From an uncultured Bacteroidales bacterium (GTDB lineage Bacteria; Bacteroidota; Bacteroidia; Bacteroidales; UBA10428), in contig CAVQXX010000015.1 in the NCBI GenBank assembly GCA_963717995.1, forward strand, positions 1,841,857-1,905,856: a stretch of DNA of 64,000 nucleotides. Direction: 5' to 3'. The notes under the pieces are model-generated. The model was not told the DNA's origin and made no database searches. It saw only the letters and a list, made by a program, of their open reading frames with translations. Of this stretch, positions 585-47,210 are shown piece by piece. Within the stretch, counting starts at the first letter, position 1. Every line of letters starts with the position of its first letter. Made by a program: the position numbers and the translations under genes.

Positions 585-616
585 GCAACGAGTGACCGGC
601 AACGAGTGACCAGCAA
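585..616. repeat. 14-nt tandem repeat (GCAACGAGTGACC+N), about 2.3 copies, just after the stop codon
   Basis: gcaacgagtgacc occurs at 585-597 and 599-611, followed by gcaaaa. AGTGAC recurs three times, giving TGA in different frames. Confidence 0.8.
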
Positions 617-701
617 AAAATCCAGTTCCAATATTTCTTTTGACGTAAAACAACACCGAATATCCAAGTCAGAATATCGCTAACAGCCGGCAGAATAGAG
701 C

Positions 702-1412
702 CTAGAAAGATCCGTAAAGAGCATGCTCCTCCGAATTGCAATAGATGGAAGAGAAAAAATAAAATCCGTTGCGGTTGGTGATCAGCTTGCGCTGAAGATG
801 CAACACGGGATGTCCCGGTGGAACCTGGAGAAAATTGCAGATGCTTTCATCCGCTCTTATGGCACGGATGCGCTGCTCGCCACTTTTTACCTCAATCTGA
901 AATGATCGGCGAAGAATATCAAAAAGGGACTGGTCCTCAAACCTGCGGTTACAGAAGCGAGGAAGATTGATGTTGGGCAGGTAGTTCAAATCGTAAAAAA
1001 CAGGGATGTCATTCACCAGCCGGAGCCGTTCCAGATAAATGCAACCCGACTGGCGGAATTCGTCATTCAGCGGAAACATAAAATCTTCCGGCCATTGTAT
1101 AATAGCCGGTTTGGACAGAATTCTGGTCCTGAGATTGTGCTTGCCCAATGCTGAAGTGGTTCCGGATATCGATAATATCCCTATGCCAATGGGCGGACCA
1201 TTTACGATACTTCCCTTACCCTTGTGTTTTCGGATCATGCCCTCGTTCAGCATGGTATCCAGTGCATGCCGCACTGTTGGTCTGGTGATCCTGTACTGCT
1301 GGCAAAGGTCATTTTCGGAAGGAAGCAGATCACCAGGCCTGTAAACGCCATCCATGACCTGCTTTCTCAATACTTCATAAAGTTGCCGGTATTGTGGAAT
1401 TGAATTGCTCAT
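702..1412 (-). CDS. GntR/HutC-family transcriptional regulator (winged HTH plus UTRA-like effector domain)
   Basis: The ATG at 1410-1412 gives MSNSIPQYRQLYEVLRKQ... with the GntR wHTH 'LPSENDLCQQYRITRPTVRHALDTMLNEGMIRKHKGKGSIV'. The longer ORF-track start (1484) adds an implausible AT-rich leader. The gene is divergent from the E2/E1 genes. Confidence 0.85.
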   Translation of the reverse strand: MSNSIPQYRQLYEVLRKQVMDGVYRPGDLLPSENDLCQQYRITRPTVRHALDTMLNEGMIRKHKGKGSIVNGPPIGIGILSISGTTSALGKHNLRTRILSKPAIIQWPEDFMFPLNDEFRQSGCIYLERLRLVNDIPVFYDLNYLPNINLPRFCNRRFEDQSLFDILRRSFQIEVKSGEQRIRAIRADESICNFLQVPPGHPVLHLQRKLITNRNGFYFFSSIYCNSEEHALYGSF

Positions 1413-1432
1413 ATAAAAAAATAAGTAAAATA

Positions 1433-1448
1433 ACTTGTAATTACAAGT
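1433..1448. promoter_or_regulatory. Perfect 16-bp palindrome ACTTGTAATTACAAGT, a candidate GntR operator
   Basis: It lies 21 nt upstream of the GntR start, in the divergent promoter region. Half-sites recur as TTACAAGT (1527-1534) and ACTTGTAA (1584-1591). The GT...AC core is typical of GntR-family operators. Confidence 0.5.
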
Positions 1449-1510
1449 ATAATTAATATATTTGCGAAGACATAAACCGAACAATTATTTAGCGCTGTAA
1501 ATATAATAAT

Positions 1511-1518
1511 TAAATTTG
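1511..1518 (+). promoter_or_regulatory. Candidate Bacteroidota -7 promoter box (TAAATTTG = TAnnTTTG) for the E2/E1 genes
   Basis: Exact match to the TAnnTTTG consensus described for Bacteroides sigma-ABfr promoters. It sits about 100 nt upstream of ATG 1621, and the TTACAAGT half-site follows immediately downstream. Confidence 0.35.
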
Positions 1519-1620
1519 ACATATGTTTACAAGTTAACCATAAAATCTTAAGCAAGGAGTTTGATTATATATCCTTTATGGAAACTTGTAAAAGAATCGT
1601 TCATTTCAAAAAAAATAAAT

Positions 1621-2916
1621 ATGGCTGTTGCTGTTATTATGCCCCGACAGGGGCAATCTGTTGAAACCTGTATTATCACAGAATGGTTAAAGAAGAAAGA
1701 TGATCCTGTAAAAACAGGTGACATTCTTTTTTCTTATGAAACCGATAAGGCCTCATTTGATGGAGAAGCCATGGCAGACGGAGTGTTGCTGGAGATTTTT
1801 GCTGCGGCCGGAGATGAAGTTCCTGTTTTAACAAACATCGCTGTCATTGGCAACCCGGGAGAGGACGTTAATACTTTCAGACCAGGAGGATCAGCTAGTC
1901 CTGCAGCTGAAAGCTCCACGCCTGTGACCGAAACCGTAGCCACAGCCCCTACTGTTTTGGAAACACCGGTTACGGCTGCAAGTGATCAACGGATCAGAAT
2001 TTCCCCGCGGGCAAAAACCATGGCATTAAAAATGGGATTGAATCCTGCGCTGATAAAAGGTACCGGACCCAATGGCAGGATTATTGTCCGTGACCTGGAA
2101 AATCTACAGGGACAATCACAGGTGATTACGGCCACGGCTCAGGTTACTGCCTCTGCAAATGTTGCCTCAACTGCCACGGCTTCCGCTTTCAGTCAATTCC
2201 AGGGTGCAGCTCCAATCGGCGCATTTGAGGAGAAAAAATTATCGAACGTTCGTAAACTCATTGCCAGGGCAATGTATGAATCCATCAGCACTTCTGCCCA
2301 GCTCACCCATCATATGTCGGCTGATGTCCGGAAGCTTCTCGCCCTGCGCAGTCAGGTAAAGGCAGAACTCGATAAAGGAGGCAATGTGAATATCACACTG
2401 AATGACATGATCTGTTTTGCTGTGATCCGTGCACTTGAATTGTTTCCTGAAGTCAACACTCATTTTACAGGTACCAGCCTTCGTGAGTTTAAGAAGGTTC
2501 ACCTTGGACTGGCGGTTGACACACCTCGCGGACTCATGGTACCCGCAATTCAGAATGCAGATGATCTTTCGCTGAAGGGACTTTCAGCCCGCCTGCGTGA
2601 GGTGGCTGACCAGTGCCGTAAAGGAAATGTAAATCCCGAAATGCTGGCCAGCACCGCTGCCTCCTTTACAGTTTCCAACCTGGGAAATTATGGTGTGGAA
2701 ATGTTCACTCCCATTATTAATCTTCCACAGGTAGCCATTCTGGGAGTAAACACGATTATTTCCCGGCCGGCCGACCTGGGCAACGGGACATTTGGTTTCA
2801 TTCCGGTGATCGGTTTGTCGCTTACCTATGATCACAGGGCTGTTGACGGAGGACCCGCCACACTGTTCCTGAAGGAGATTAAAAATCAAATTGAAAATTT
2901 TAAAGAGAGTATTTAA
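1621..2916 (+). CDS. Dihydrolipoamide acyltransferase, the E2 component of a 2-oxoacid (pyruvate/acetoin/branched-chain type) dehydrogenase complex
   Basis: Start MAVAVIMPRQGQSVE at ATG 1621. Lipoyl-lysine motif 'ETDKAS', an Ala/Pro/Thr-rich linker, an E3-binding-like segment 'RISPRAKTMALKMGLNPALIKGTGPNGRI', and the catalytic 'DHRAVDG'. Confidence 0.92.
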   Translation: MAVAVIMPRQGQSVETCIITEWLKKKDDPVKTGDILFSYETDKASFDGEAMADGVLLEIFAAAGDEVPVLTNIAVIGNPGEDVNTFRPGGSASPAAESSTPVTETVATAPTVLETPVTAASDQRIRISPRAKTMALKMGLNPALIKGTGPNGRIIVRDLENLQGQSQVITATAQVTASANVASTATASAFSQFQGAAPIGAFEEKKLSNVRKLIARAMYESISTSAQLTHHMSADVRKLLALRSQVKAELDKGGNVNITLNDMICFAVIRALELFPEVNTHFTGTSLREFKKVHLGLAVDTPRGLMVPAIQNADDLSLKGLSARLREVADQCRKGNVNPEMLASTAASFTVSNLGNYGVEMFTPIINLPQVAILGVNTIISRPADLGNGTFGFIPVIGLSLTYDHRAVDGGPATLFLKEIKNQIENFKESI

Positions 2917-2924
2917 GAATGTAT

Positions 2925-2957
2925 AGTTTTTAACTTTTAGTTTTTAACTTTTAACTT
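2925..2957. repeat. AGTTTTTAACTTTT 14-nt tandem repeat (x2 plus a partial copy) in the E2-E1 spacer
   Basis: agtttttaactttt occurs at 2925-2938 and 2939-2952, followed by aactt. The repeat contains TAA and TAG. Confidence 0.8.
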
Positions 2958-2962
2958 ATATC

Positions 2963-5431: not shown

Positions 5432-5435
5432 AGGC

Positions 5436-5463
5436 CGGTATTCGGTGATCGGTGATCGGTAAA
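5436..5463. repeat. CGGTRAT heptamer array (4 units) starting 5 nt after the E1 stop
   Basis: Units are cggtatt, cggtgat, cggtgat, cggtaaa. TGA/TAA recur with a 7-nt period. Confidence 0.8.
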
Positions 5464-5473
5464 TTAGAAATAA

Positions 5474-5558
5474 TTGTAGAGCCAGGGCAATGCCCTGGCT
5501 GTAAGGTCACCAGCACAGGAGAAAAATACTGTAGAGACAAGGCAATGCCTTGTCTGTA
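5474..5558. repeat. Two copies of a roughly 30-nt hairpin element (TGTAGAG-stem-AAT-stem-GTA). A third copy lies at 41819-41839.
   Basis: Copy 1 has stem AGCCAGGGC/GCCCTGGCT (5480-5500). Copy 2 has stem AGACAAGGC/GCCTTGTCT (5535-5555). Both have loop AAT, and the stem differences between copies are compensatory. Confidence 0.8.
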
Positions 5559-5587
5559 CGATTACCAACACGGATCAAAATATAGGG

Positions 5588-5657
5588 TAGAGTTAGTTTA
5601 AGTAGTAAGTTTAGTAGTTAGTAGTTAGTAGTTAGGAGTTAGGAGTTTGGAGTTGGG
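5588..5657. repeat. Degenerating AGTTAGT/AGTTAGG heptamer array (about 10 units)
   Basis: ...agtagttagtagttagtagttaggagttaggagtttggagttgggg. TAG recurs every 7 nt. Confidence 0.8.
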
Positions 5658-5679
5658 GCAGCCAGAGGGTGGCTGCCCC
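5655..5679 (+). terminator. GC-rich hairpin (9-bp stem GGGGCAGCC/GGCTGCCCC). Possible terminator or insulator between E1 and the PHP-like gene.
   Basis: The stem is perfect with a 7-nt loop and is followed by a weak T-rich tail (ttattaacaatt). It lies 29 nt before ATG 5708. Confidence 0.4.
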
Positions 5680-5707
5680 TTATTAACAATTAAAGGAAAA
5701 GCAAAAA

Positions 5708-6943: not shown

Positions 6944-6945
6944 AT

Positions 6946-8916
6946 ATGACTGACAAGTATCTTTCTGATCTCATCAGTATATCTCAGCATTTTGGTGCAG
7001 ATAAGGAATATGTCATTGCCGGAGGCGGTAATACCTCTTACAAAAATGACACCGACATCTGGGTAAAGGCAAGTGGTACATCCCTGCAGAATATCAGTAT
7101 AGCTGGTTTTGCCAAATTGCACCGGAGCCTTCTTCAGGAAATGTATACGAAGAAATACAGTCAGGAGGCCGATAAACGGGAGGCTGAGGTTAAGGCCGAC
7201 CTTTACAGGGCCTGCCATGAAGGAATTACCGTGCGGCCTTCGGTAGAAACCTCAATGCATGAGATCATCAATTATCCCTTTGTGGTTCATACCCACCCCA
7301 CCCTTGTGAATGCAATTACATGCTCAAACAAGGCGGAAGAAATAATCCTTTCGTTATTCGGCGATGAGGCCTTGTACATTCCCTGGGAAGATCCGGGTTA
7401 TATCCTGTTCGCCAAAATAAGGGATCTTCTGTGGGAATGGCGTAAAACACATTCGGCCGATCCGCAGATAATTTTCCTGCAAAATCATGGTGTTTTTGTG
7501 GCTTCCGGCACCACAGAGGATATTTTTGAAAAATACAGGAATATTGACTCAATCATACGCAAGCATCTTAAACAGATGCCTGATACAACCGCAATAGAAG
7601 TACCTGCGCAGATTGTGAGGATATTACCGGCCCTGCGAATGATCTTTTCCAGGGAAAACGCAAAAATAGCCGGCATCAGAAATAATCCGCTGGCACAGCT
7701 TTTCCTCAAAGACGCTGCCAGTTTTGCAAAGGTTGCCCTTCCGTTCATTCCCGACCAGATAGTGTATTGCAAGGCAAGAGCAATCTATCTTGAACAGGAT
7801 CAGCCCGAGGCAATCATTGCAGAATGCAACGCCAGGGTCACTGCATATGAAAAACAATACGGATATATGCCCAAAATGGTGGGCCTGAAGGGTTACGGAA
7901 TAATAGCCATTGAAGATACCTGGAAATCAGTGGATACAATGCAGGAGGTTTTTGAGGACTGGATGAAGATCAGCTTTCTGTCGGAAAATTTCGGCGGTCC
8001 TCATTTCATGAGTGAAAGGGATATCTCCTTTATCGATAACTGGGAGGTGGAAAACTACAGAAGACAGATCTCCAAATCAGCATCATCAAAAGGCAGGGCA
8101 GAAAATAAGATCGTTGTGGTAACCGGAGGTGCCCAGGGATTTGGTGCCGGAATCGCTGCACATATGATGAATGAAGGGGCCAACATGGTAATCGCCGATC
8201 TGAATGAGACTATGGGTAAAGAACTGGCTAATACCTTTAACCAGGGAAAAAACAAGGGGAAAGCAATCTTTGTAAAGACTGATGTATCCAGTGCCTCCTC
8301 CGTTGAAAACCTTATCACGGAAACAGTACGGAATTTTGGCGGACTGGATGTGTTCATCAGTAATGCGGGCATACTTCGTGCAGGCGGACTGGATGAAATG
8401 AGTCCTGAATCGTTTGAACTAATGACAAAGGTTAACTACAATGCCTATTTTCTATGTGCAAAATATGCTTCAGCCGTATTAAAACTGCAATCCACACAGA
8501 AGCCGGGATTTTTCACCGACATTATACAGATTAACTCAAAATCAGGATTAAAGGGCAGCAATAAAAACTTTGCCTATGCAGGAGGCAAATTCGGAGGAAT
8601 TGGCCTTACACAATCCTTTGCCCTTGAACTGATGCCTTTCGGTATTAAGGTGAATTCGATATGTCCGGGTAATTTCTTTGAAGGTCCATTGTGGAGTGAT
8701 CCGGAGACGGGATTGTTTGTCCAATATCTGAGAACAGGCAAGGTACCGGGAGCAAAAACGATCGAGGATGTAAAAGCCCGGTATGAAAAGCAGGTTCCGG
8801 CAGGCCGCGGCTGCAGGGTAGAGGATGTGATGAAAGCCATTTATTATGTCATTGAACAGGAATATGAAACAGGTCAGGCTGTTCCGGTAACAGGTGGACA
8901 GGAAATGCTTAGTTAG
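6946..8916 (+). CDS. Bifunctional class II aldolase/adducin-domain plus short-chain dehydrogenase fusion (rhamnulose-1-phosphate aldolase/lactaldehyde dehydrogenase RhaEW-like architecture)
   Basis: 656 aa. The N-terminal ~400 aa are class-II-aldolase-like ('FVVHTHP', 'QNHGVFV'). The C-terminal SDR has 'VVTGGAQGFGAGIA' (TGxxxGxG), 'NAG' and the catalytic 'YAGGK' (YxxxK). Confidence 0.8.
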   Translation: MTDKYLSDLISISQHFGADKEYVIAGGGNTSYKNDTDIWVKASGTSLQNISIAGFAKLHRSLLQEMYTKKYSQEADKREAEVKADLYRACHEGITVRPSVETSMHEIINYPFVVHTHPTLVNAITCSNKAEEIILSLFGDEALYIPWEDPGYILFAKIRDLLWEWRKTHSADPQIIFLQNHGVFVASGTTEDIFEKYRNIDSIIRKHLKQMPDTTAIEVPAQIVRILPALRMIFSRENAKIAGIRNNPLAQLFLKDAASFAKVALPFIPDQIVYCKARAIYLEQDQPEAIIAECNARVTAYEKQYGYMPKMVGLKGYGIIAIEDTWKSVDTMQEVFEDWMKISFLSENFGGPHFMSERDISFIDNWEVENYRRQISKSASSKGRAENKIVVVTGGAQGFGAGIAAHMMNEGANMVIADLNETMGKELANTFNQGKNKGKAIFVKTDVSSASSVENLITETVRNFGGLDVFISNAGILRAGGLDEMSPESFELMTKVNYNAYFLCAKYASAVLKLQSTQKPGFFTDIIQINSKSGLKGSNKNFAYAGGKFGGIGLTQSFALELMPFGIKVNSICPGNFFEGPLWSDPETGLFVQYLRTGKVPGAKTIEDVKARYEKQVPAGRGCRVEDVMKAIYYVIEQEYETGQAVPVTGGQEMLS

Positions 8917-8957
8917 TTGTGTTGTTAGTTGTTAGTTGTTAGTTGTTAGTTGTTAGT
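8917..8957. repeat. GTTGTTA heptamer array (about 5 units) starting at the stop codon
   Basis: ttgtgttgttagttgttagttgttagttgttagttgttagtg. TAG recurs every 7 nt, so it falls in all three frames. Confidence 0.85.
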
Positions 8958-8974
8958 GCAGATGCATTCATTTT

Positions 8975-8993
8975 CCGTGGATTTCATCCACGG
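8975..8993 (+). terminator. Hairpin CCGTGGAT-TTC-ATCCACGG, a possible intrinsic terminator of the aldolase/SDR gene
   Basis: Perfect 8-bp stem and 3-nt loop, followed by ttattgat. The T-tract is weak. Confidence 0.35.
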
Positions 8994-9026
8994 TTATTGA
9001 TATATGGCCTCTCCGGGGCCGTCACC

Positions 9027-9050
9027 ACTGCAAGACTGCAAGACTGCAAG
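9027..9050. repeat. ACTGCAAG octamer x3
   Basis: Three perfect copies. The same octamer family occurs at 28511, 36659 and 39286, and inverted at 43043. Confidence 0.85.
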
Positions 9051-9061
9051 ATCATAAAACA

Positions 9062-9165
9062 ATTAGCACATTAGCACATTGGCATATTAGCACATTAGCA
9101 TATTAGCATATTAGCATATTAGCACATTAGCACATTAGCACATTAGCACATTAGCACATTAGCAT
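9062..9165. repeat. ATTAGCAY octamer array, 13 contiguous units, ending 15 nt before ATG 9181
   Basis: 8x attagcac, 4x attagcat and 1x attggcat, counted unit by unit. An inverted copy of the family (gctaatgt) lies at 39239-39270. Confidence 0.9.
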
Positions 9166-9180
9166 ATTAATTTTTAAATT

Positions 9181-10455: not shown

Positions 10456-10635
10456 CCATTCATCTGACGAAATACGCGAGAAAACAAAAAGGATTATCAT
10501 CAGATCCCCCAAAATTTAACGCAGAGAACGGTAAGTTTTTGTTTACCAGGCTTGAAGAGGTCGCAGAGAAATCTCATTGCATTCGATTTAACCGTTTTCA
10601 AGGTTAAAATCTGATCATCAGCGAAAATCTGCGAG

Positions 10636-10687
10636 AAAAAAAGCATTAAAAAAATGCAACTATCCCATTATTGTTAGATAGTTGCAT
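10636..10687 (-). terminator. Rho-independent terminator of the minus-strand gene 10710-11432
   Basis: 11-bp perfect stem ATGCAACTATC (10654-10664) / GATAGTTGCAT (10677-10687). On the minus strand it is followed by TTTTTTAATGCTTTTTTT. Confidence 0.75.
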
Positions 10688-10709
10688 CTAAAGTTAATTT
10701 CAGACAAGT

Positions 10710-11432: not shown

Positions 11433-11460
11433 TTGTTAGTTGTTAAGTTATTATTTAGTG
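11433..11460. repeat. TTGTTAG-type heptamer array (4 degenerate units)
   Basis: Units are ttgttag, ttgttaa, gttatta, tttagtg. It belongs to the same family as the arrays at 8917 and 5588. Confidence 0.7.
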
Positions 11461-14027: not shown

Positions 14028-14032
14028 ATTCT

Positions 14033-17793: not shown

Positions 17794-18765
17794 ATGGCCA
17801 AGATAAAATATAAGTTTAATCCGGAATCCCTTAAATACTATAAGGTGGAATCGACCGTGAAGCAAAATACGCTGAAGGGATTGGCTTATTTTTTCGTTTT
17901 CATGCTAAATGCATTGGTTGGTTATTTTCTGTATTCGTTTGCTTTTGATTCACCTGAAGAAAAAGGCCTCAAAAGGCAGATCAGTGAAAGGAACATCGTT
18001 ATTGAACAATTCAATAAGCAACTGGATAATATTGACAAGGTTCTGGCGGATATGCAAAACAGGGATGATAATATCTACCGGACCATCTTCGAAGCAGAAC
18101 CCCTGAATTACTCGGTAAGAAAAGCCGGCTTTGGCGGATCAAACCGGTATAAGGAACTTGAAAAGATGGAAAACTCAAAGATGGTTCTTGAAACAGCCAA
18201 ACGGCTCGATATTTTGAAAAGCAAGGTTGTAATCCAGTCGAAATCTTATGATGATCTTGTAAAGATGGCCGTCAGCAAGGAAAAAATGCTTGCCTCAATT
18301 CCAGCCATTCAGCCAATTGCCAATAAGGACCTGGAAAGAACTGCTTCAGGCTGGGGATATAGAATTCATCCAATTTACAAGATCAGGAAATTCCATTATG
18401 GCATCGACTTTACATCACCTACAGGAACTGAAATATATTCGACAGGTGACGGCATTGTGGAAAAAATAGATCGCAGCCTCAGGGGTTATGGTAATTCCAT
18501 CATCATTAATCACGGATTTGGAACAAAAACGATTTATGGCCACATGTCTGCTTTTAATATTAAACAGGGTCAGAAGGTGAAACGAGGAGACGTTATCGGT
18601 TATGTAGGCAACACCGGACTTTCCACAGCACCCCATCTACATTACGAAGTAGAACGGAACGGCGAAAAAGTCAATCCCATGAACTACTTCTTTAATGATC
18701 TAACTGCTGATGAGTATGACCGCATGATTGACCTCTCCATGCGTCCCGGACAATCCTTTGACTAG
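17794..18765 (+). CDS. M23 family metallopeptidase, tandem paralog
   Basis: 'HYGIDF' and 'APHLHYEV'. The architecture matches 16807-17781. Confidence 0.9.
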   Translation: MAKIKYKFNPESLKYYKVESTVKQNTLKGLAYFFVFMLNALVGYFLYSFAFDSPEEKGLKRQISERNIVIEQFNKQLDNIDKVLADMQNRDDNIYRTIFEAEPLNYSVRKAGFGGSNRYKELEKMENSKMVLETAKRLDILKSKVVIQSKSYDDLVKMAVSKEKMLASIPAIQPIANKDLERTASGWGYRIHPIYKIRKFHYGIDFTSPTGTEIYSTGDGIVEKIDRSLRGYGNSIIINHGFGTKTIYGHMSAFNIKQGQKVKRGDVIGYVGNTGLSTAPHLHYEVERNGEKVNPMNYFFNDLTADEYDRMIDLSMRPGQSFD

Positions 18766-18769
18766 GCTA

Positions 18770-18807
18770 TTAGGGGCTTAGGGGCTTAGGGGCTTATAGG
18801 TTGTTAG
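18770..18807. repeat. TTAGGGGC octamer array (3 units plus degenerate units) starting 5 nt after the stop
   Basis: Units are ttaggggc x3, then ttatagg and ttgttag. It is inverted relative to the array at 18917-18964. Confidence 0.85.
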
Positions 18808-18855
18808 AGACGTCGGTAAATTAAGATATTGTTACATTGGAAGAATAAATATAAT

Positions 18856-18896
18856 AAGACCTTCAGGGATTTAAAATACTGGAGGTCTTTTCTTTT
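18856..18896 (+). terminator. Rho-independent terminator after the M23 pair
   Basis: The stem AAGACCTTCAG / CTGGAGGTCTT has 11 bp with one G-U pair. It has a 12-nt loop and is followed by TTCTTTT. Confidence 0.75.
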
Positions 18897-18916
18897 GAAG
18901 CCCCTGGTTCCCCATG

Positions 18917-18964
18917 TCCCTAAACCCCAGGGCCCCTAAATCCCTAAACCCCTAAACCCCTAAT
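18917..18964. repeat. CCCCTAAA octamer array (6 units), the inverted partner of 18770-18807
   Basis: Units are tccctaaa, ccccaggg, cccctaaa, tccctaaa, cccctaaa, cccctaat. The reverse complement TTTAGGGG differs from the left unit CTTAGGGG at one position. Confidence 0.85.
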
Positions 18965-19017
18965 TTGCTATTTCAAAATTTATTTATACCTTAGAAAGTT
19001 CATTCTAACCACTTAAT

Positions 19018-28440: not shown

Positions 28441-28479
28441 TCCTGGATACTGAATGTTGGAAGAGAAATTATGAGATGA

Positions 28480-28529
28480 TGAATTATGAATTCTGAATGG
28501 GGGATCGCGAACTGCAAAACTGCAGAACT
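28480..28529. repeat. TGAATTN heptamers (x3) followed by ACTGCARA octamers (x2-3)
   Basis: Heptamers tgaatta, tgaattc, tgaatgg at 28480-28500. Octamers actgcaaa, actgcaga, act at 28511-28529. Confidence 0.7.
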
Positions 28530-28598
28530 TCTTTCATTGTTATTCCAGGCAACCAATAATTGCCGCCGCAAACCTTCCCCGGTGTTTACTGCTCGTCC

Positions 28599-29132
28599 CT
28601 AGTCCCCAGTCCCTGGTCTCTGCTTAAACCATCCCGCATACATAATATAATCATCCGCGATGCGGTTGATCATTTCAGCCGTCTGTTCCGGATCCACATC
28701 TTTCACCCGTTTCGCCGGAACCCCGGCATAAATACTGCCGGGTTCCACAAGGGTGCCGGTTAATACAACCGATCCTGCCGCTATTATTGAATTTTCTCCG
28801 ATTATGGCGTTGTCAAGTATCACTGAACCCATGCCAATGAGGACATTATTTCCAATTTTAGCGCCATGAATTACCACATTATGACCAATGGAAACATTAT
28901 CACCAATTTCTATTACTGAACGCTGGTAAAGACAATGCAATACAGTACCATCCTGTATGTTGACCTTATTACCTATGCGGATAGAATTCACATCACCCCT
29001 TACCACCACACCAAACCAGAAGCTGCATTGATCACCGGCTATTACATCACCGATGATTACAGCCGTTTCAGCCAGGTAACAATTTTCACCCAGTTGCGGT
29101 GTAAAGCCCCGTACAGATTTAATTAATGCCAT
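28599..29132 (-). CDS. Gamma-carbonic-anhydrase-like / hexapeptide-repeat (LbH) family protein
   Basis: Left-handed beta-helix hexapeptide repeats ('IGDNVSIGHNVVIHGAKIGNNVLIGMGSVILDNAIIGENSIIAAGSVV'), with His residues typical of gamma-CA/PaaY/CaiE-like proteins. Confidence 0.88.
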   Translation of the reverse strand: MALIKSVRGFTPQLGENCYLAETAVIIGDVIAGDQCSFWFGVVVRGDVNSIRIGNKVNIQDGTVLHCLYQRSVIEIGDNVSIGHNVVIHGAKIGNNVLIGMGSVILDNAIIGENSIIAAGSVVLTGTLVEPGSIYAGVPAKRVKDVDPEQTAEMINRIADDYIMYAGWFKQRPGTGD

Positions 29133-36234: not shown

Positions 36235-36390
36235 TATTTAAGGAATTAAAACCTTGTACAAGTTAGTTAAAAAATGGGTCGATTGCAATATCTGCTTGAG
36301 AAGATATGAGAGTTGAGTAGGGAGTCCCTCAGCATTTATCAATTTTGCCCCAAAATAATTAACTGAAATGGAAAATGCGAACAAAGTGAG

Positions 36391-36569
36391 CATTCATCTG
36401 CGTGCCGAAGGCATCCCTTCGGGAAAATCTGCGGAATCTGCGAGAGAAGTTTTTGGAATTTATGACTTTACAGGGAATATGTAAAAGTTTTACCGCCGAG
36501 GTCACGAAGGAATACGCAAAGTTCACAAAGTTTAATTTTGAGGCGCTTTGCTTTTTTGAGGTCGCAGAG
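36391..36569. repeat. Degenerate word-repeat region sharing 10-12-nt strings with 10457-10636
   Basis: cattcatctg occurs at 36391 and 10457. gaaaatctgcg / atctgcgaga occurs at 36423-36445 and 10623-10636. gaggtcgcagag occurs at 36558 and 10557. There is also a hairpin CCGAAGG-catc-CCTTCGG at about 36404-36421. Confidence 0.7.
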
Positions 36570-36658
36570 TTTAGCGACCCTGCCTTTGTGCCTTTGTTAC
36601 AGTCATTTAAAATCTAGTTATTTAAGAGTAAGGAGTAGGGAGATTCCACTCTGAAGAG

Positions 36659-36688
36659 ACTGCAAGACTGCAAGACCGCAAGACTGCC
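36659..36688. repeat. ACTGCAAG octamer array (about 3.7 units)
   Basis: Units are actgcaag, actgcaag, accgcaag, actgcc. The unit is identical to that at 9027-9050. Confidence 0.85.
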
Positions 36689-36817
36689 TTGAGATTTCAG
36701 TTGCAGACTTTTGACAGATCGTTATCAAGACACAATATAAATAAATGGAGGCAACACCCCCGAAATAATAAAATATATATTTTCGGGAATTAAATCAGGA
36801 TCACTCTTACAGGTTAC

Positions 36818-39228: not shown

Positions 39229-39238
39229 TGAACAATCT

Positions 39239-39317
39239 GCTAATGTGCTAATGTGCTAATTTGCAAATGTGTTCCGGAGACTTTCGACTGCATGACTGCA
39301 TAACTGCATAACTGCAA
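39239..39317. repeat. GCTAATGT octamers (4 units, 39239-39270) and RACTGCAT octamers (4 units, 39286-39317) between convergent genes
   Basis: The first array is the reverse complement of the ATTAGCAC family at 9062. The second belongs to the ACTGCA family. A 12-bp palindrome AATTTGCAAATT lies within the first array. Confidence 0.85.
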
Positions 39318-39344
39318 AACTTCCTCTACCGGTCAGCTTATACG

Positions 39345-39788
39345 TCAATTTTTTGTATACACCGCGGTACAATGGTCCACAGTCCCACTGCCATCATCTA
39401 CAGTATATGAAAGGTTGATTTTTTCGAAATTGGATGATATAGTTCCGGAACCTGAAACTGAAAATCCTCCTTCTACATTCTGATTGGGTATGATAAGGCT
39501 CATGCCGGAAACATTTGCCTTCGCACTTGCATTAAGTCCGTAAAAATTATCAATGATCACCCCTGATGGATTGTCAGCATCGGCAGACAAGGTAACTGTA
39601 TATACCTCAGATGTGGCCTTAAATATCTCACTTTGCTCATCGCAGGTCCAATCTCCTTCAAGCTTGGCAACAGTGGCTGCCGAACCGGTCAATGAATCAA
39701 TGGTTTCGCATGAGTAGGTAAACAGAAAAGGAACTATGAATGCAAGTAAAAAAAGTTTGCGTCCTGTTGTGGGTAGATAACGTTTCAT
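39345..39788 (-). CDS. Small hypothetical lipoprotein
   Basis: Signal peptide and lipobox 'LLAFIVPFLFTYSC', followed by a beta-rich 120-aa body. No family recognised. Confidence 0.6.
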   Translation of the reverse strand: MKRYLPTTGRKLFLLAFIVPFLFTYSCETIDSLTGSAATVAKLEGDWTCDEQSEIFKATSEVYTVTLSADADNPSGVIIDNFYGLNASAKANVSGMSLIIPNQNVEGGFSVSGSGTISSNFEKINLSYTVDDGSGTVDHCTAVYTKN

Positions 39789-40523: not shown

Positions 40524-40527
40524 TACT

Positions 40528-40977
40528 ATGTCTATGCGTGCATCTGATTTATTTACTCCCGAAGAACGGAAGCGGATTATGCAGGCCATTGAAGCGGCTG
40601 AGATGAATACCTCGGGTGAAATCAGGGTACATGTCGAGGTTTCATATAACGGGGCTTTGCTTGACCGGGCAGCAACAGTTTTTGCCCGCTTGGGTATGCA
40701 CAAAACAGCCCTCCGGAATGGGGTTCTGTTTTACCTGGCAGTACAGAAACGACAGTTTGCTGTGATCGGAGATGCCGGCATCAACAAGGTTGTGCCTACT
40801 TCATTCTGGGATGAAACCCGGTCAGTGATGGAAGGATACTTTAAGAATTCTGAATTTGGTGAAGGTTTATCAAAAGGGATACTAATGACCGGCGAACAGC
40901 TGAAGAAGCACTTTCCCTATAAAACCGGTGACTTAAATGAACTTCCCAATGAAATTTCATTTGGCAAGGATGAATGA
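40528..40977 (+). CDS. TPM-domain protein (TLP18.3/Psb32/MOLO-1 phosphatase-like), soluble form
   Basis: 'I..AE..TSGEIRVHV' and 'NGVLFYLAVQKRQFAVIGDAGI'. Position after lemA is conserved. Confidence 0.8.
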   Translation: MSMRASDLFTPEERKRIMQAIEAAEMNTSGEIRVHVEVSYNGALLDRAATVFARLGMHKTALRNGVLFYLAVQKRQFAVIGDAGINKVVPTSFWDETRSVMEGYFKNSEFGEGLSKGILMTGEQLKKHFPYKTGDLNELPNEISFGKDE

Positions 40978-40978
40978 T

Positions 40979-41773
40979 ATGGTAAAGAACATTCGATATA
41001 TATCTGCTTTTCTGCTGATCCTTATTGTCACAGTTAAAGCAAGCGGTCAGCAACTTCCGGAGCCGATGGTTCCGCTGCGGCTCGTAAATGATTTCACCGG
41101 ATTTTTAAGTGAGGATCAGCAAATCGCTCTCAATAACAAGCTCCTGGATTTCAATAATCAAACTTCAACACAGATTTATGTGGTGACCTATGATGAGCTG
41201 CAGGATTACCCGATTGAAGAATTTGCCGACAAATTGGCGGAAAAATGGGGCATCGGTCAAAAGGGGAAGGATAATGGCATAATTATACTTATCAGTCCTC
41301 AAAACCGTCAGCGCGGAATTACTATCCAAACGGGTTATGGCCTTGAAGGAGCAGTCCCTGATGCCATTGCTAAAAGGATTATTGAGAAAGTAATCGTTCC
41401 GGATTTCAAGCAGGGTAATTATTATGCCGGGTTGGATTCAGCTACAAATGTACTCATGTCGCTTACCCGCGGAGAATTTACAGCGGATAACTACATGAAA
41501 AAAAGCGGCGGTGATGGTAAAATTCCGGGTGCGGCATTCTTTATTATTATTATAATATTCCTGCTGTTCTCCAAAATATTTGGAAATAGAAGACGCACCA
41601 TTGGAAGACGCGGATCCATACTTCCATGGCTGCTATTGGGAGCCGGAACTCATTCCGGAAGCGGTTGGGGAAACTTTTCTTCAGGCAGCGGCTCCTTTGG
41701 TGGCGGTGGAGGAGGCTTCGGTGGCGGTGGTGGCGGAAGTTTTGGTGGCGGCGGAGCTTCTGGAGGCTGGTAA
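40979..41773 (+). CDS. TPM-domain protein (YgcG-like) with a signal peptide, a C-terminal TM helix and a Gly-rich tail
   Basis: 'V.D....LS..Q...L...L..F...TS.QI.VVT', 'NGIIILISPQNR', a TM helix 'AAFFIIIIIFLLF', and the tail 'GGGGGFGGGGGGSFGGGGASGGW'. The start is ATG 40979 or 40970. Confidence 0.8.
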   Translation: MVKNIRYISAFLLILIVTVKASGQQLPEPMVPLRLVNDFTGFLSEDQQIALNNKLLDFNNQTSTQIYVVTYDELQDYPIEEFADKLAEKWGIGQKGKDNGIIILISPQNRQRGITIQTGYGLEGAVPDAIAKRIIEKVIVPDFKQGNYYAGLDSATNVLMSLTRGEFTADNYMKKSGGDGKIPGAAFFIIIIIFLLFSKIFGNRRRTIGRRGSILPWLLLGAGTHSGSGWGNFSSGSGSFGGGGGGFGGGGGGSFGGGGASGGW

Positions 41774-41805
41774 TCAGTATCCGGTAATCGGTATCCAGTA
41801 ATTGG
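41771..41805. repeat. 14-nt tandem repeat TAATCRGTATCCRG x2.5 that begins with the stop codon
   Basis: Units are taatcagtatccgg, taatcggtatccag, taattgg. Confidence 0.8.
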
Positions 41806-41818
41806 AAAAATATAGTAG

Positions 41819-41851
41819 GGACAAGGCAATGCCTTGTCCTGTCTTTTTATT
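41819..41851 (+). terminator. Rho-independent terminator, the third member of the GGCAATGCC hairpin family
   Basis: Stem GGACAAGGC / GCCTTGTCC with loop AAT, followed by tgtcTTTTTATT. Confidence 0.75.
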
Positions 41852-41923
41852 CGTGTTTATCCAATTTCAAACATAAATCGGAATCATTCGTTTAATGGTA
41901 TAACGTTTTAATTTGAAATTCAG

Positions 41924-43036: not shown

Positions 43037-43042
43037 GAAGAA

Positions 43043-43106
43043 GTTCTGCAGTTCTGCAGTTCTGCTTCATGGGCTTCGCCTCTCACCTCTCACCTCTCCC
43101 TACTCC
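43043..43106. repeat. GTTCTGCA octamers x3 (43043-43066) and CCTCTCA heptamers x4 (43079-43106) between convergent genes
   Basis: The octamer is the reverse complement of the ACTGCAGA family. On the minus strand (the nadK side) the heptamer reads TGAGAGG, giving TGA every 7 nt. Confidence 0.85.
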
Positions 43107-43110
43107 CTTT

Positions 43111-43986
43111 TTAGTTCCTCACATCCTCTCCCCACTTCAACTTATCCCTCAGGGTAGTGTAAAAACTGGTGTTGGGAAGTTTCAGGAGTTTCAGGGTGTA
43201 ATCCGATTTGGTAATTTCAAATTCCTCATTCGTGTCCATAATTACAGACCGGTTATCTGCAGTAAGGATGAATTTTCCGCTTCGGCTATGAACCTTAAGC
43301 CTGATCACACTCGAATCGGGAAGGACCAGAGGGCGGACTGTAAGATTATGGGGAGCAATTGGCGCAATAATAAGGCTTCCTGTTCCCGGCACCATAACTG
43401 GCCCTCCCACACTCAAAGAATAAGCCGTGGATCCGGTAGGTGTACTGATGATCAGCCCGTCAGTCCAGTAAGTATTTAAGAATTCCTGGTTAATGTACGC
43501 ATCAATATTGACCATGGTAGAATCGCCCTTGATCGTAATGTCATTCAGGGCAAAATTCATCCCGTCGAAAAGTGCGGGATGACTTGAGAATTCAATCAAC
43601 GGGCGGTACTCAAAACCATAATGCCGTTCCAGGATGTTTGCAAAAGCATCCCGTATATTTTCCTTTGATATATTCGATAAAAAACCCAGCCGGCCCGAAT
43701 TAATACCGATAATAGGTGTACTGTGGCGGATAATAAAAGGAATTGACTCCAGGAAGGTACCATCTCCGCCGATACTCACCATGATGTCACAAGATGTATC
43801 GTAATCGTCGGGGCCGGTAAAAATCCTGTCTACCTTATATTCCTTACAGGTTTCACAGCAAATAAAATCGAAAAAAGGCTTATAAACCACCAGTTCAGTA
43901 TTGTGTTCAGCAAGCACATCCAACATTTCGGTGATGTATGGCCTGAATCCCACGTTGAATGTTTTCCCGTAAACAGCAATCCTCAT
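43111..43986 (-). CDS. nadK: NAD+ kinase
   Basis: 'MVSIGGDGTFL', 'GINSGRLGFL' and 'TPTGSTAYSLSVGGP'. Confidence 0.94.
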   Translation of the reverse strand: MRIAVYGKTFNVGFRPYITEMLDVLAEHNTELVVYKPFFDFICCETCKEYKVDRIFTGPDDYDTSCDIMVSIGGDGTFLESIPFIIRHSTPIIGINSGRLGFLSNISKENIRDAFANILERHYGFEYRPLIEFSSHPALFDGMNFALNDITIKGDSTMVNIDAYINQEFLNTYWTDGLIISTPTGSTAYSLSVGGPVMVPGTGSLIIAPIAPHNLTVRPLVLPDSSVIRLKVHSRSGKFILTADNRSVIMDTNEEFEITKSDYTLKLLKLPNTSFYTTLRDKLKWGEDVRN

Positions 43987-44648: not shown

Positions 44649-44739
44649 AGCAAAGGTATTTATAAAACCTGCTAAATTTGTTCCGGAAAGCAGTGATTAA
44701 AATTAGCTGTTATTTACATAAAATGCAAACCAGGAAATC

Positions 44740-45453
44740 ATGACCAAACTGAGCGTCAATATCAACAAAATTGCGACGATCCGCAATGCGCGGGGGGGGA
44801 ACGTACCCAATGTTGCCGAAGCTGCCATATATTGTCAGAAATTTGGTGCCCAGGGAATTACAGTACATCCCCGCCCCGATGAAAGGCATATTCGATATCA
44901 GGATGTAAGGGAGATCAAACCCATTATTACAACGGAATTCAATATTGAGGGTTATCCGTCACAGCGCTTTATCGACCTGGTGCAGGAGGTAAAACCAAAC
45001 CAGGCGACCCTGGTTCCTGATTCCCATGAGGTGATCACATCAAACCAGGGATGGAACGTGATCAAGTATGAAAGATTTCTGCGCGATGTGGTTACTGAAT
45101 TGCAGCACAATGGAATCCGCACTTCCTTGTTCATCGACCCGGACCTCGAACAGATCGAATGCGCCGCAGCTACCGGAACTAACCGGATAGAATTATACAC
45201 CGAACCCTACGCGAGCAAATATCAATCCGACAGGGCGAAGGCTATTGCTCCCTATATCCGTGCCGCGCAAAAAGCAGGTGAACTCAAACTTGAACTAAAT
45301 GCAGGTCATGATCTGAGCCTGCAAAACCTCCGTTACTTTAAAGACAATATACCCGGATTACTCGAAGTGTCCATTGGACATGCCCTTATATCGGATGCCC
45401 TGTATTTCGGTTTGGAAAAGACCATTCGCCTTTATCTTGACCAGATCTCCTGA
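44740..45453 (+). CDS. pdxJ: Pyridoxine 5'-phosphate synthase
   Basis: '[17 protein letters not shown]', '[13 protein letters not shown]', 'ATLVPD' and 'NAGHDL'. Confidence 0.95.
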
Positions 45454-46256
45454 TGAAACTTTTTTTCAGAAGATTAGGTTTTGGTAAACCCATCGTTATT
45501 CTTCACGGATTGTACGGATCATCCGACAATTGGTACACCATAGGTAGGGCGTTGGCCGATCAATATGAAGTATTCATACCTGATCAGCGAAATCATGGTA
45601 ATTCACCTCATCATCAGCACCATGATTACAATGTATTGATGGATGATCTCAACGATTTCTTCATTCAGCATAATCTCACCCGCGCAGTGATCCTGGGACA
45701 TTCGATGGGCGGTAAAACGGCACTGGCATTTGGACTTAAGTATCCCGAAAAGGTTGAAAAAATGATCGTGGTGGATATTTCTCCATTTGGATACGATGAA
45801 ACATCGGCTCCTGAAGTTATTTCACATGAACATATCATGAGAAGCCTGATGACTCTTCAGCCCGAAACGCTAAAAGGCAGGCAGGATGCCGATAATAGTC
45901 TTCAGAAACAAATTCGGTCGGAATCGGTAAGGCAGTTTCTGCTTAAAAACCTGAAAAGGGACAGCAAGGGGGTTTTCTATTGGGCAATGAATTTGACAGT
46001 ATTGCTACAGCACCTGACCGACATATACGCCTCTATCATTCCCTCTGAACAAATCAGCACCGATGATATCCCGGTCTTTCCCCTGATGTTTATCAAGGGC
46101 AAAAATTCAGGATACCTGAGAAAAGAAGAGTTCGTCCACATCCGGCATTTTTTCCCCCATGCAGTGCTGGCTGAAATCGCAGGTGCCGGTCACTGGGTGC
46201 ATGCTGAACAACCTGACGAGTTCCTGAGAACTATCAGGGATTTCATTTCAAAATAA
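45453..46256 (+). CDS. Alpha/beta-fold hydrolase
   Basis: Nucleophile elbow 'GHSMGG' and a C-terminal 'GAGHWVHAE' His motif. The start overlaps the pdxJ stop (TGATG). Confidence 0.85.
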   Translation: MKLFFRRLGFGKPIVILHGLYGSSDNWYTIGRALADQYEVFIPDQRNHGNSPHHQHHDYNVLMDDLNDFFIQHNLTRAVILGHSMGGKTALAFGLKYPEKVEKMIVVDISPFGYDETSAPEVISHEHIMRSLMTLQPETLKGRQDADNSLQKQIRSESVRQFLLKNLKRDSKGVFYWAMNLTVLLQHLTDIYASIIPSEQISTDDIPVFPLMFIKGKNSGYLRKEEFVHIRHFFPHAVLAEIAGAGHWVHAEQPDEFLRTIRDFISK

Positions 46257-46357
46257 GCAGGAGAATTCTTCGTTTTATTACCACCGAATTCTCGTTTTTG
46301 GCAAACCCTAAAAGACGGTTTTACGTATATAATCCAACACTTTAAATCATAAGATAC

Positions 46358-47140
46358 ATGAATAGTAAAATGATCATTTATGTTACCGGAATTCTGGTGT
46401 TTTTCACCGTTATTATTATTGCTTGTGAAAAGGAAAAAAAATCTTCCGCACCTGAACTTCCGCCTCTTTCAACTTTTTCGATGCAGATAGATGACCTTTC
46501 TATGGCTGAAAAAGCTGCTGGTTCCTATAATAATATAATTACTGCCGCGTTGGCCACAGGCTACTGGAATACAGTATTGACGGCTTACCTGGCGGTTCCT
46601 GTAGCATCCTATGCTGAAGCCTTTAATCATCCTGCCCAGAGACTGGATAATAACACCTGGGAATGGACATACCAGGTAGTGGTTCAGGATACCACCTATA
46701 CCGCCAATTTATTTGCCTTTATTGAAAGCAATGGCATTAATATGGAAATGCATGTTTCCAAAGAGGGAGGATTTCAGGATTTTGTATGGTATACAGGGAC
46801 TTTCAATTTGGAGAGAACAGAGGGACAATGGACCATTCAGGATAATCCTGAAAACGATATGACCTGGCTGAACATCATCTGGCATCATGATTACGTGGCT
46901 AAAACCTTTGATATTCAATATACAAACGTATATCCAACAGGTGATTACAAAGACAGTTTTATTAAATATGGTATCCGGAAGGATAATGCCTATGACGCCT
47001 TTTATAACATTTACAGTTCACCGGATGACAAAACCTATGAAATAGATTTTAACACAACCACGCACGAGGGCAGAATATATTATGAATCATTATGGCATTG
47101 CTGGGATGCAAATTTACAGGATGTGATTTGCCCCAATTAA
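46358..47140 (+). CDS. Hypothetical lipoprotein
   Basis: Signal peptide and lipobox 'VFFTVIIIACEKE'. No recognisable family. Confidence 0.55.
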   Translation: MNSKMIIYVTGILVFFTVIIIACEKEKKSSAPELPPLSTFSMQIDDLSMAEKAAGSYNNIITAALATGYWNTVLTAYLAVPVASYAEAFNHPAQRLDNNTWEWTYQVVVQDTTYTANLFAFIESNGINMEMHVSKEGGFQDFVWYTGTFNLERTEGQWTIQDNPENDMTWLNIIWHHDYVAKTFDIQYTNVYPTGDYKDSFIKYGIRKDNAYDAFYNIYSSPDDKTYEIDFNTTTHEGRIYYESLWHCWDANLQDVICPN

Positions 47141-47210
47141 TTTACGATCTACGATTTACGATTTATGATGTAAGACACCAATCGTAAATCGTATATCGTA
47201 AATCGTAAAT
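47141..47210. terminator. Inverted heptamer arrays (TACGATT x4 / AATCGTA x4) forming a ~30-bp-arm hairpin, probably a bidirectional terminator
   Basis: Left arm 47141-47170 and right arm 47180-47210, with a 9-nt spacer (taagacacc). The arms are complementary except at 3-4 positions. The element fills the 75-nt gap between the convergent genes almost completely. Confidence 0.6.

Follow-up and report, generated by a model that had tools for sequence, protein, structure and literature searches.

Heptamer and octamer arrays downstream of stop codons in a lineage of uncultured Bacteroidales

The intergenic spacers of an uncultured Bacteroidales bacterium carry short tandem arrays of 7- and 8-nt units at a density well above chance, and these arrays favor the DNA just behind stop codons and obey a strand bias relative to the gene that they follow. 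We describe them in a 64,000-nt stretch of contig CAVQXX010000015.1 (assembly GCA_963717995.1, positions 1,841,857 to 1,905,856), hereafter the window, and in related loci, where gene order is kept, the units at a given junction turn over rapidly and copy numbers change. Arrays of this kind, reminiscent of the short tandemly repeated repetitive (STRR) sequences of cyanobacteria, are characteristic of a clade of uncultured Bacteroidales from the environment. We consider it probable that the window arrays are hypervariable long simple sequence repeats (SSRs) that originate by slippage and module exchange, are retained only in insertion-tolerant DNA after stop codons and are filtered in orientation by what the adjoining stop and start regions require.

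Excess, placement and strand bias

Arrays were called with Tandem Repeats Finder (TRF) at score cut-offs of at least 30 and at least 40, on a gene map built greedily from the longest non-overlapping open reading frames (ORFs), in which start positions are approximate. Intergenic DNA on this map amounts to 4.4 kb, or 6.8% of the window; the spacers as compared with shuffles (4.66 kb, about 7%) contain 19 arrays scoring at least 30, as against 2.0±1.3 (maximum 6) in 200 dinucleotide-preserving shuffles; at the stricter cut-off the figures are 17 and 0.36. About 15% of the spacer DNA is array. The units run head to tail and fall within the 5-11 nt range of long SSRs, with array lengths beyond chance, and the only periods found in window spacers are 7, 8, 14 (two heptamers) and 24 (three octamers). 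The 59.7 kb of coding sequence (CDS) holds six arrays scoring at least 40, with periods of 9, 15, 21 and 24, each a multiple of three; as is usual for long SSRs, heptamers and neighboring unit lengths dominate in the window and units whose length is a multiple of three are restricted to CDS.

The original prediction, made from the letters of the window, had placed 21 arrays, 20 of which TRF reports; the missing one, at 11433, consists of about two imperfect copies and adjoins a start rather than a stop codon. Its claim of unusual density is borne out by the shuffles, and its assertion that periods are never a multiple of three holds for the base units of the window and fails in relatives: across the spacers of 31 Bacteroidales loci, which are the basis of the clade-wide counts below, periods 7 (n=37), 8 (n=20), 21 (n=12) and 14 (n=10) dominate, and periods 9, 12 and 6 are also present. 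A CGGTRAT array proposed at about 43023 lies inside a CDS. The arrays are not assembly artifacts, a possibility that the prediction had asked to be checked, because independent assemblies from several projects, both short-read and long-read, carry them at identical junctions. Nor do they resemble clustered regularly interspaced short palindromic repeats, which have repeats of 23-50 nt and unique spacers of similar length, as the window units are 7-8 nt long and abut directly. Rfam covariance models at the gathering score gave no match anywhere in the window.

Placement follows gene orientation. None of the seven divergent, promoter-bearing spacers of the window has an array, and five of the six convergent spacers of at least 70 nt have one; about 12 arrays overlap a stop codon or come within 0-12 nt of one (among them those at 577, 8912, 28595, 41769 and 47140). 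Across the clade, arrays are found in 20/46 convergent, 56/160 tandem and 6/54 divergent spacers, the divergent class differing from all others (76/206) with Fisher P=2e-4. Of the 64 arrays in tandem spacers, 32 are located no more than 10 nt from the stop, where uniform placement predicts 15.0±2.8; the 17 located no more than 10 nt from the start are close to the number expected at random. The 3′-end bias and the emptiness of promoter-side spacers that had been claimed are both upheld; about half of the window arrays abut or overlap a stop codon. The array at 28595 crosses the stop into the 3′ end of a hexapeptide-transferase CDS, so that the C-terminus of this protein is partly repeat-encoded. 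A possible exception to the avoidance of promoter-side spacers is the array at 36657: the neighboring 71-aa ORF at 36402-36617 has a GTG start and no Pfam match, overlaps ATCTGCG-type repeats and is probably not a gene, in which case the array may sit in a divergent spacer of 583 nt (36235-36817), as the single exception. Repeats that drive phase variation lie in promoters or 5′ coding regions, a placement that the window arrays do not share, since they follow stops and avoid divergent spacers and CDS.

Composition depends on which end of the spacer an array occupies. Read on the sense strand, stop-proximal units have a G content of 0.29 and a C content of 0.15, with G exceeding C in 28 units and falling below it in 4 (P=2e-5); units near starts are rich in A (0.40) and poor in G (0.10).

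Turnover and shared modules in relatives

Proteins encoded in the window include AlaRS, BamA, a 2-oxoacid:acceptor oxidoreductase, a GalA/GalB-type beta-galactosidase and CrtI-family enzymes. Relatives were found by scanning species-representative genomes with the aldolase/SDR protein encoded at 6946-8916, and the close ones are solely metagenome-assembled genomes of uncultured Bacteroidales, with 97% (L003), 92% (L011), 88% (L001) and 84% (L002) identity in this protein, followed by values of at most 71%. A cyanobacterial origin, entertained on account of the STRR-like arrays, was rejected: the window has no HIP1 site (GCGATCGC), and its proteins and relatives are those of Bacteroidales.

Gene order is kept across the relatives' loci. 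In orthologous spacers that bear promoters, length is kept as well (76/76/77/73/76 nt in one, 137/138/138/137/137/137/136 nt in another) and arrays are absent; stop-side spacers range from 54 to 264 nt after the aldolase gene, from 36 to 276 nt after the E1 gene, and from 50 to 355 nt and 77 to 267 nt elsewhere, and this variation in length consists of arrays. Among relatives at 55-97% protein identity the identical junction holds different units, as the spacer after the aldolase gene illustrates (Table 1). Where the unit is shared, copy numbers differ by whole units: ATTAGCAC is repeated 13.5 times in the window, 9.8 in L011, 6.1 in L001 and 5.5 in L003, and TTAGGAG 6.3, 6.3, 4.1 and 5.3 times, respectively. 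Between the near-identical contigs L182 and L183, one octamer array changes in length by 8 nt, and two samples in which the neighboring protein is identical differ by 32 nt, or 4 units, in another. Judged across relatives, the arrays are hypermutable, as had been proposed, in the manner of long SSRs, whose copy number varies by whole units between related genomes. Individual arrays appear dispensable, because close relatives lack them or have others instead.

The spacers also share sequence modules. Comparison of units in any rotation and orientation yields 12 pairs with at most one mismatch, against 2.2±1.4 in shuffled units (0 of 3000 shuffles reach 12), in agreement with the earlier observation that unit families recur in both orientations. 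The ACTGCARR family is present at 9027, 28510, 36657 and 39287 and inverted at 43042, ATTAGCAC at 9062 and inverted at 39234, the CGGTRAT family at 5442 and 41769, and the TTAGTWG family at 5591 and 8912. The reverse complement of 39229-39344 aligns, linker included, with a composite in the aldolase spacer of L011 and L001, the common arrangement being GGAAGTTTT-(GCAGTYNT)n-TCGRAAGTCTYCGGA-(ACATTAGC)n, and GGCCGTCA-(ACTGCARA)n is common to the window at 9017 and a different spacer of L002 (8638). A palindrome resembling the repetitive extragenic palindromes (REP) of other bacteria, GACAAGGCAATGCCTTGTC, often enclosed within TGTAGAG...CTCTACA, lies in stop-side spacers of the species group: it has 4 matches in the window against 0.02 expected (among them 5482-5500, 5536-5554 and 41820-41838) and recurs in L001 (728, 8597), L002 (827), L003 (8618) and L011 (610, 8610). 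Since such modules are shared between spacers, we regard the spacers as mosaics of small shared modules.

One unit extends well beyond this species group. A metagenome search with an exact 21-nt ATTAGCAC probe matched at least 120 contigs, with a GC content of 25-59% among the matches listed; the contigs listed hold 455 arrays in 766 kb, mostly with periods 8, 7, 14, 16 and 21. Again among the matches listed, inverted pairs have the layout 5′-(TAATGTGC)n...(GCACATTA)n-3′ in 41 loci and the opposite layout in 1, an asymmetry that is real because either configuration reads alike on both strands. In the tandem spacers of these matches arrays in the TAATGTGC orientation are close to the stop (median 25 nt) and those in the GCACATTA orientation closer to the next start, a rule that both copies of the family in the window (9062 and 39234) follow. 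Other unit families form 9 inverted pairs only, their polarity split 5 against 3 with one tie. The same probe matched 11 viral contigs (L164-L174) of IMG/VR, in which ACTGCAAG had no match and a shuffled octamer had three; octamer arrays in general are therefore not rare in the viral set, and the ATTAGCAC unit is favored there over the control octamers. In the viral contigs the arrays often form inverted pairs around a GGCTGCGCC loop, and some adjoin small genes or a gene for a putative portal protein. A literature search found no paper containing a dimer of the ATTAGCAC or GTGCTAAT unit.

Table 1. Arrays of the window as reported by TRF, states of the spacer after the aldolase gene, and array-bracketed PF05635 genes in other loci
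Location	Strand	Unit and copy number	Setting	Corresponding place in relatives
577..616	+	(AGTGACCAGCAACG)x2.9, two alternating heptamers	Begins within TAG stop of ORF ending at 578; convergent spacer	
2924..2957	+	(TAGTTTT/TTTTAAC)x4.3 or 14-mer x2.1	7 nt past stop 2916; occupies most of 46-nt spacer	Related TTTTAGC/CTTTTAA arrays, other copy numbers (L003, L011, L001)
5436..5460	+	(CGGTGAT)x~3	4-10 nt past stop 5431	(CGGTAAT)x5.3-5.4 in L003, L011; about 8 copies in L185, L187
5591..5654	+	(TTAGTAG/TTAGGAG)x~9, heptamers	Upstream of GC-rich hairpin and of start 5708	
8912..8957	+	(GTTAGTT)x6.9	Includes TAG stop (8914-8916) of aldolase/SDR gene	Other units in other species
9027..9051	+	(ACTGCAAG)x3.1, ACTGCARR family		Inverted in L011 and L001
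9062..9169	+	(ATTAGCAC)x13.5, right-arm orientation	Ends 11 nt ahead of ATG 9181	
18770..18796	+	(TTAGGGGC)x3.4	4 nt past stop 18765; left arm of inverted pair, terminator-like hairpin between the arms	
18901..18963	+	(CCCTAAAC)x5.8, also 24-nt higher-order period	Right arm, complementary to 18770 array	Units present with other copy numbers (L002, L003, L011)
28467..28498	+	(AATTATG)x4.4	26 nt past stop 28440; convergent spacer	
28510..28529	+	(AACTGCAA)x2.5, ACTGCARR family		
28595..28613	-	(GTCCCCA)x2.7, sense-strand TGGGGAC; a rotation of cyanobacterial STRR1 (CCCCAGT)	Spans stop and last codons of hexapeptide-transferase gene 28599-29132(-)	
36657..36687	+	(AGACTGCA)x3.9, ACTGCARR family	Spacer type uncertain	
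39234..39271	+	(AATGTGCT)x4.8, reverse complement of ATTAGCAC, left-arm orientation	5 nt past stop 39228; convergent spacer	
39287..39321	+	(ACTGCATA)x4.4, ACTGCARR family	23 nt from stop of gene 39345-39788(-)	
41769..41802	+	(GGTAATCAGTATCC)x2.4	Includes TAA stop 41771-41773; followed by REP-like hairpin GACAAGGCAATGCCTTGTC and T-tract	
43042..43065	+	(AGTTCTGC)x3.0, inverted ACTGCAGA unit	5 nt past stop 43036	Unit with identical flank at L002 8638
43079..43098	-	(CCTCTCA)x2.9, sense-strand TGAGAGG	12 nt from stop of gene 43111-43986(-)	
47140..47169	+	(ATTTACG)x4.3	Starts on last base of TAA stop; left arm of near-perfect inverted pair	
47180..47210	+	(AATCGTA)x4.4	5 nt from stop of gene 47216-48253(-); right arm, reverse complement of 47140 array	
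Aldolase spacer, window		(GTTAGTT)7, hairpins, (ACTGCAAG)3, (ATTAGCAC)13.5		
Aldolase spacer, L011 and L001		(TTGATAG)n, then inverted ACTGCAAG-type array, then (ACATTAGC)n		
Aldolase spacer, L003		(ATTAGCAC)5.5 only	Spacer 54 nt	
Aldolase spacer, L185-L189		Unrelated inverted pair (TAAAAGA)n...(TTTTTAG)n	Neighboring protein 96% identical	
Aldolase spacer, L190		Palindrome only, no array	97%	
Aldolase spacer, L004 (11962-12000)		(TTATGAA)x5.3	Fills 30-nt spacer; holds aldolase TAA stop and ATG of next gene	
Aldolase spacer, L006, L018, L037		Further different heptamers		
Aldolase spacer, L009, L010, L016, L017, L022		Plain	25-50 nt	
L114 5325-5796; L125 7931-8435; L012 12029-12442		Inverted octamer/heptamer arrays	Bracket PF05635 genes between host stop and next start	
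L051, L044, L122, L141, L178-L184, L191-L204			Further loci with array-bracketed PF05635 genes	

Three further kinds of repeat were seen in the window. A 24-nt glycine-rich coding repeat (GGCGGTGGAGGAAGCTTCGG...) at 41698-41754 lies at the C-terminus of the gene at 40937-41773, just ahead of the array at 41769. Two 21-nt coding repeats (61958-62007, x2.4; 62185-62236, x2.5) lie in a gene ending at 62538, which is located downstream of a BlaI/Penicillinase_R-type repressor gene (60372-60776). Motifs of the ATCTGCG(A/T)G type, spaced by about 10 nt, occur at 36395-36450 and 10470-10640, in two spacers with no 7- or 8-mer arrays there, and the orthologous convergent spacer of L003 (13444-13620) contains 9-10 nt arrays of this motif.

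Origin and possible roles

The excess of arrays, their placement, strand bias, turnover and variation in copy number are observed; the process that we infer behind them, with slippage as its motor, tolerance as its filter and possibly a role in RNA, would run as follows. Slipped-strand mispairing would give rise to arrays and alter their copy number, and recombination or some form of mobility would carry whole array modules from one spacer to another. Arrays would survive only where insertions are tolerated, right after stops, inside operons or between convergent genes, and not in short promoter spacers. A filter, whether selection or transcription-linked mutation, would set orientation, leaving the stop side G-rich, C-poor and often stop-bearing and the start side A-rich and G-poor, and many arrays, being paired in inverted orientation, would fold into extended hairpins once transcribed.

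Several observations weigh against this explanation, at least in the form of plain neutral slippage, which leaves unexplained the restriction to 7- and 8-nt units, the recurrence of unit families tens of kilobases apart, the linker-included composites common to unrelated spacers, and the wide occurrence of (ATTAGCAC)n in metagenomes together with its pair polarity. The module mosaics are not accounted for by simple slippage in place, and relatives about 96-97% identical with wholly different arrays look more like the outcome of module replacement than of stepwise slippage.

Two rivals, each of which we hold possible but unlikely, deserve weight. According to the first, the arrays are selected RNA or DNA structures, in which the stems of inverted pairs serve as bidirectional terminators, 3′-end stabilizers or RNase III sites and tandem repetition is how the stems grow. 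Three spacers are predicted to fold far better than shuffles: 47135-47221 as an 87-nt hairpin of -32.5 kcal/mol (z=-8.1), 8911-9180 (z=-5.0) and 18760-18970 (z=-3.8); the spacer of the 41769 array has z=-2.9. In 8911-9180 the predicted pairing of (GUUAGUU)n, the array at 8912, with (AUUAGCAY)n, the array at 9062, depends on G-U pairs and so suggests that RNA is the level concerned; same-unit inverted pairs recur in many loci, and such stems bracket PF05635 genes in a manner resembling the stems of 23S rRNA intervening sequences. Against this, four of the seven short array spacers tested fold no better than shuffles (z from -0.9 to +0.8), most arrays have no complementary partner, and L003, at 97% protein identity, has lost the left arm and center of the 8911-9180 structure. 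Canonical hairpin-plus-T terminators stand beside arrays in several spacers, so that the arrays are not needed for termination there; a consensus terminator scan of the window (23 sites against 20±5 expected) was not informative. The terminator or structural role that the original prediction had offered is thus possible for some arrays, as modeled by folding, and does not apply to arrays in general.

The second of these rivals, which we rate no higher than the first, holds that the arrays are parts of small dispersed mobile modules, either hairpins like miniature inverted-repeat transposable elements (MITEs) or PF05635-related cassettes, whose landing sites fall between the stop of one gene and the start of its neighbor, the window arrays being "empty" copies or relics. 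Much of what slippage leaves unexplained speaks for it, namely the composites shared between the window and L011, L001 and L002, the spread of ATTAGCAC arrays through metagenome and viral contigs with fixed pair polarity, and the wholesale replacement of modules in close relatives. On the other side, MITEs and transposon ends combine terminal inverted repeats with a target-site duplication, and their copies have internal sequence in common; here, inverted array pairs and shared composites exist, neither target-site duplications nor a transposase were found, and loop sequences differ between loci; arbitrary octamer arrays exist too, as the matches to the shuffled control unit in the viral set attest; and the diversity of units is so high that one transposase could not recognize them all.

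The cassette version of this rival derives from PF05635, the family of the 23S rRNA intervening-sequence protein or "four helix bundle protein" in Pfam. It forms the largest protein cluster next to ATTAGCAC arrays (6 of the 120 loci listed), among which no protein family adjoins the arrays generally. In these 6 loci, among the matches listed, the loop of the TAATGTGC/GCACATTA inverted pair is a PF05635 gene of about 120 aa: the host gene's TAA stop opens the left array, the TAG stop of the cassette gene lies in the right one and, where the arrangement is clearest, for instance in L125, this right array terminates at the ATG of the following gene. Paludibacter-like contigs have PF05635 homologs bracketed by (TGATGTGA)n...(TCACATCA)n, and in L012 such a gene sits within the aldolase spacer, flanked by GATTCAG/CTGAATC repeats. 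In L184, L191, L192 and L194 two ABC transporter genes are separated by a second PF05635 copy, which is missing from L182 and L183, where the two transporter genes overlap (ATGA). Recent transposition, sought as identical PF05635 proteins in differing contexts, is not shown, as identical proteins were found in a single conserved context only, downstream of radC, and the window has no PF05635 gene or remnant. Our literature search retrieved no paper on array-bracketed PF05635 genes.

It is conceivable, though we think it rather unlikely, that many arrays are the closing stems or landing hairpins of a PF05635 cassette system that inserts exactly between a stop and the next start, with the ATTAGCAC/AATGTGCT arrays and other inverted pairs of the window as empty or decayed sites. 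In such a system, and with equal reserve, the enclosing 5′-(TRATGTGM)n...(KCACATYA)n-3′ arrays might provide the stop of the host gene at one end and reach just to the following ATG at the other. The PF05635 proteins are related to Avd of diversity-generating retroelements. If true, PF05635 cassettes would be the protein-gene counterpart of rRNA intervening sequences, and the link between them and one widespread octamer family makes a concrete, testable lead; it is a lead, and not an explanation of the window arrays.

The two remaining readings are less likely than the RNA-stem and dispersed-module rivals. The original prediction had suggested that stop-bearing units with a period that is not a multiple of three are frame-independent backstops, halting ribosomes after read-through or frameshifting. 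Many arrays do start in or at a stop codon, and stop triplets occur on the sense strand of 32/47 stop-proximal units, against 24.5±2.8 in composition-matched shuffles (P=0.006) and 19/49 on the antisense strand. Once arrays holding the gene's own stop are removed, the excess becomes marginal (16/25 against 12.1, P about 0.05); stops are missing from about one third of the units, ACTGCAAG, ATTTACG and AGTTCTGC among them; in close relatives the corresponding genes are followed by another array or by none; and start-proximal and interior arrays could not serve in this way, all of which makes a backstop role improbable. We consider it more improbable still that the arrays bind proteins that polymerize on DNA or RNA at a 7-8 nt step, in the way that ribbon-helix-helix proteins bind heptad or 8-bp boxes, omega and MetJ-type repressors use a spacing of 7-8 bp and RNA-binding proteins acting as sponges bind at such a step: a few unit families do recur within the genome, and ATTAGCAC and its relatives recur in many metagenome contigs with fixed polarity, but dozens of unrelated units are found per genome, and at one junction across species, no DNA-binding gene consistently adjoins them, and repressor sites would be expected in promoter spacers, which the arrays avoid.

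Significance and comparison with known systems

Hypervariable long SSRs of probable slippage origin, which remain our preferred explanation, bear on one of the oldest unexplained features of bacterial genomes, as heptamer and octamer arrays are, and we found no established mechanism in the literature for either the 7-8 nt step or the stop-side placement. The combination of conserved gene order and fast array turnover in these relatives offers a natural comparative series for the birth, growth and replacement of arrays. In practical terms, the arrays may serve as strain-typing markers, and they cause assembly breaks and errors in calling the 3′ ends of genes. Arrays of 7- and 8-nt units of this kind were not found described for this uncultured Bacteroidales group in our literature search.

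Among known elements, the cyanobacterial STRR sequences, reportedly described by Mazel et al. in 1990 (reference 39 of PMC4692102), are tandem heptamers with several unit families per genome, dispersed in non-coding DNA, that give rise to strain-variable spacers. The window arrays are like them in comprising several dispersed heptamer families and in spacers that differ between strains, and unlike them in belonging to another phylum and in having octamers as common as heptamers. Intergenic mosaic elements, such as the bacterial interspersed mosaic elements (BIMEs) with REP sequences of E. coli and the Neisseria intergenic mosaic elements (NIMEs), resemble our spacers in being assembled from small dispersed modules, here the REP-like palindrome GACAAGGCAATGCCTTGTC and the shared array modules; they are not built of 7-8 nt tandem units, as these spacers are, and no transposase of the REP-associated tyrosine type was seen here. 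The 23S rRNA intervening sequences of Leptospira and Coxiella, with their PF05635 ORF, share with the array-bracketed cassettes a four-helix-bundle gene of about 120 aa within long inverted repeats that would form a closing stem, whereas the cassettes lie between protein genes, have tandem octamer arrays as stems and are absent from the window.

The claim that such arrays are atypical for bacterial chromosomes was overstated. In the survey by Mrazek (2007), as summarized in PMC4679880, units of 5-11 nt are over-represented in scattered lineages, with heptamers commonest and polymerase slippage proposed as the cause; the ten richest genomes belong to Burkholderia, cyanobacteria, actinobacteria and Xanthomonas, and that summary names no Bacteroidales. 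As far as this account of them goes, the window arrays share with these repeats a length beyond chance, the prominence of heptamers and the restriction of multiple-of-three periods to CDS. MacGregor (2015; PMC4679880) described direct repeats of the heptamer TAACTGA in Beggiatoaceae, cyanobacteria and five Bacteroidetes; Paludibacter, Gramella and Aequorivita are among the Bacteroidetes with intergenic heptamer arrays, and some spacers combine these repeats with further heptamer arrays. Those are intergenic heptamer arrays like ours; they consist of one unit placed mostly directly upstream of starts, whereas many units are placed mostly directly downstream of stops here.

The closest correspondence is with the heptameric SSRs of Xanthomonas (GGGAATC) and Nostoc (GGGGA(C/T)T) described by Rehm et al. 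(2015; PMC4692102), about 90% of which are intergenic, in 2 to more than 20 copies. These favor gaps between co-oriented ORFs and are scarce between divergent ones; those downstream of ORFs are found up to 50 bp from the stop, their G-rich strand being the sense strand, and those upstream are in antisense orientation; overlap with stop codons and inverted pairing are each seen in some of them, and the majority are transcribed (PMC4692102). The window arrays show the same scarcity in divergent spacers, stop-near placement, G-rich sense strand, stop overlap, inverted pairs and variation in presence and copy number between related genomes. They differ in that one G-tract unit (GGGNATC), capable of forming G-quadruplexes and preferring four copies, dominates there (PMC4692102), whereas the window has more than 15 different units with no such dominant one, G or C tracts of 3-4 bases occurring only in TTAGGGGC/CCCTAAAC and GTCCCCA (2-3 arrays: 18770, 18901 and 28595); many of the units here are unrelated, octamers are as numerous as heptamers, and the host is an uncultured Bacteroidales lineage. 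Because placement and strand rules match those of the published heptamers, the arrays belong to a known kind of element, and the adherence of this Bacteroidales clade to the rules of Nostoc and Xanthomonas argues for a general cause over a lineage-specific function. Differences remain in the lineage of the host, in octamers having an equal share, in how many unit families there are and in the sharing of modules between spacers.

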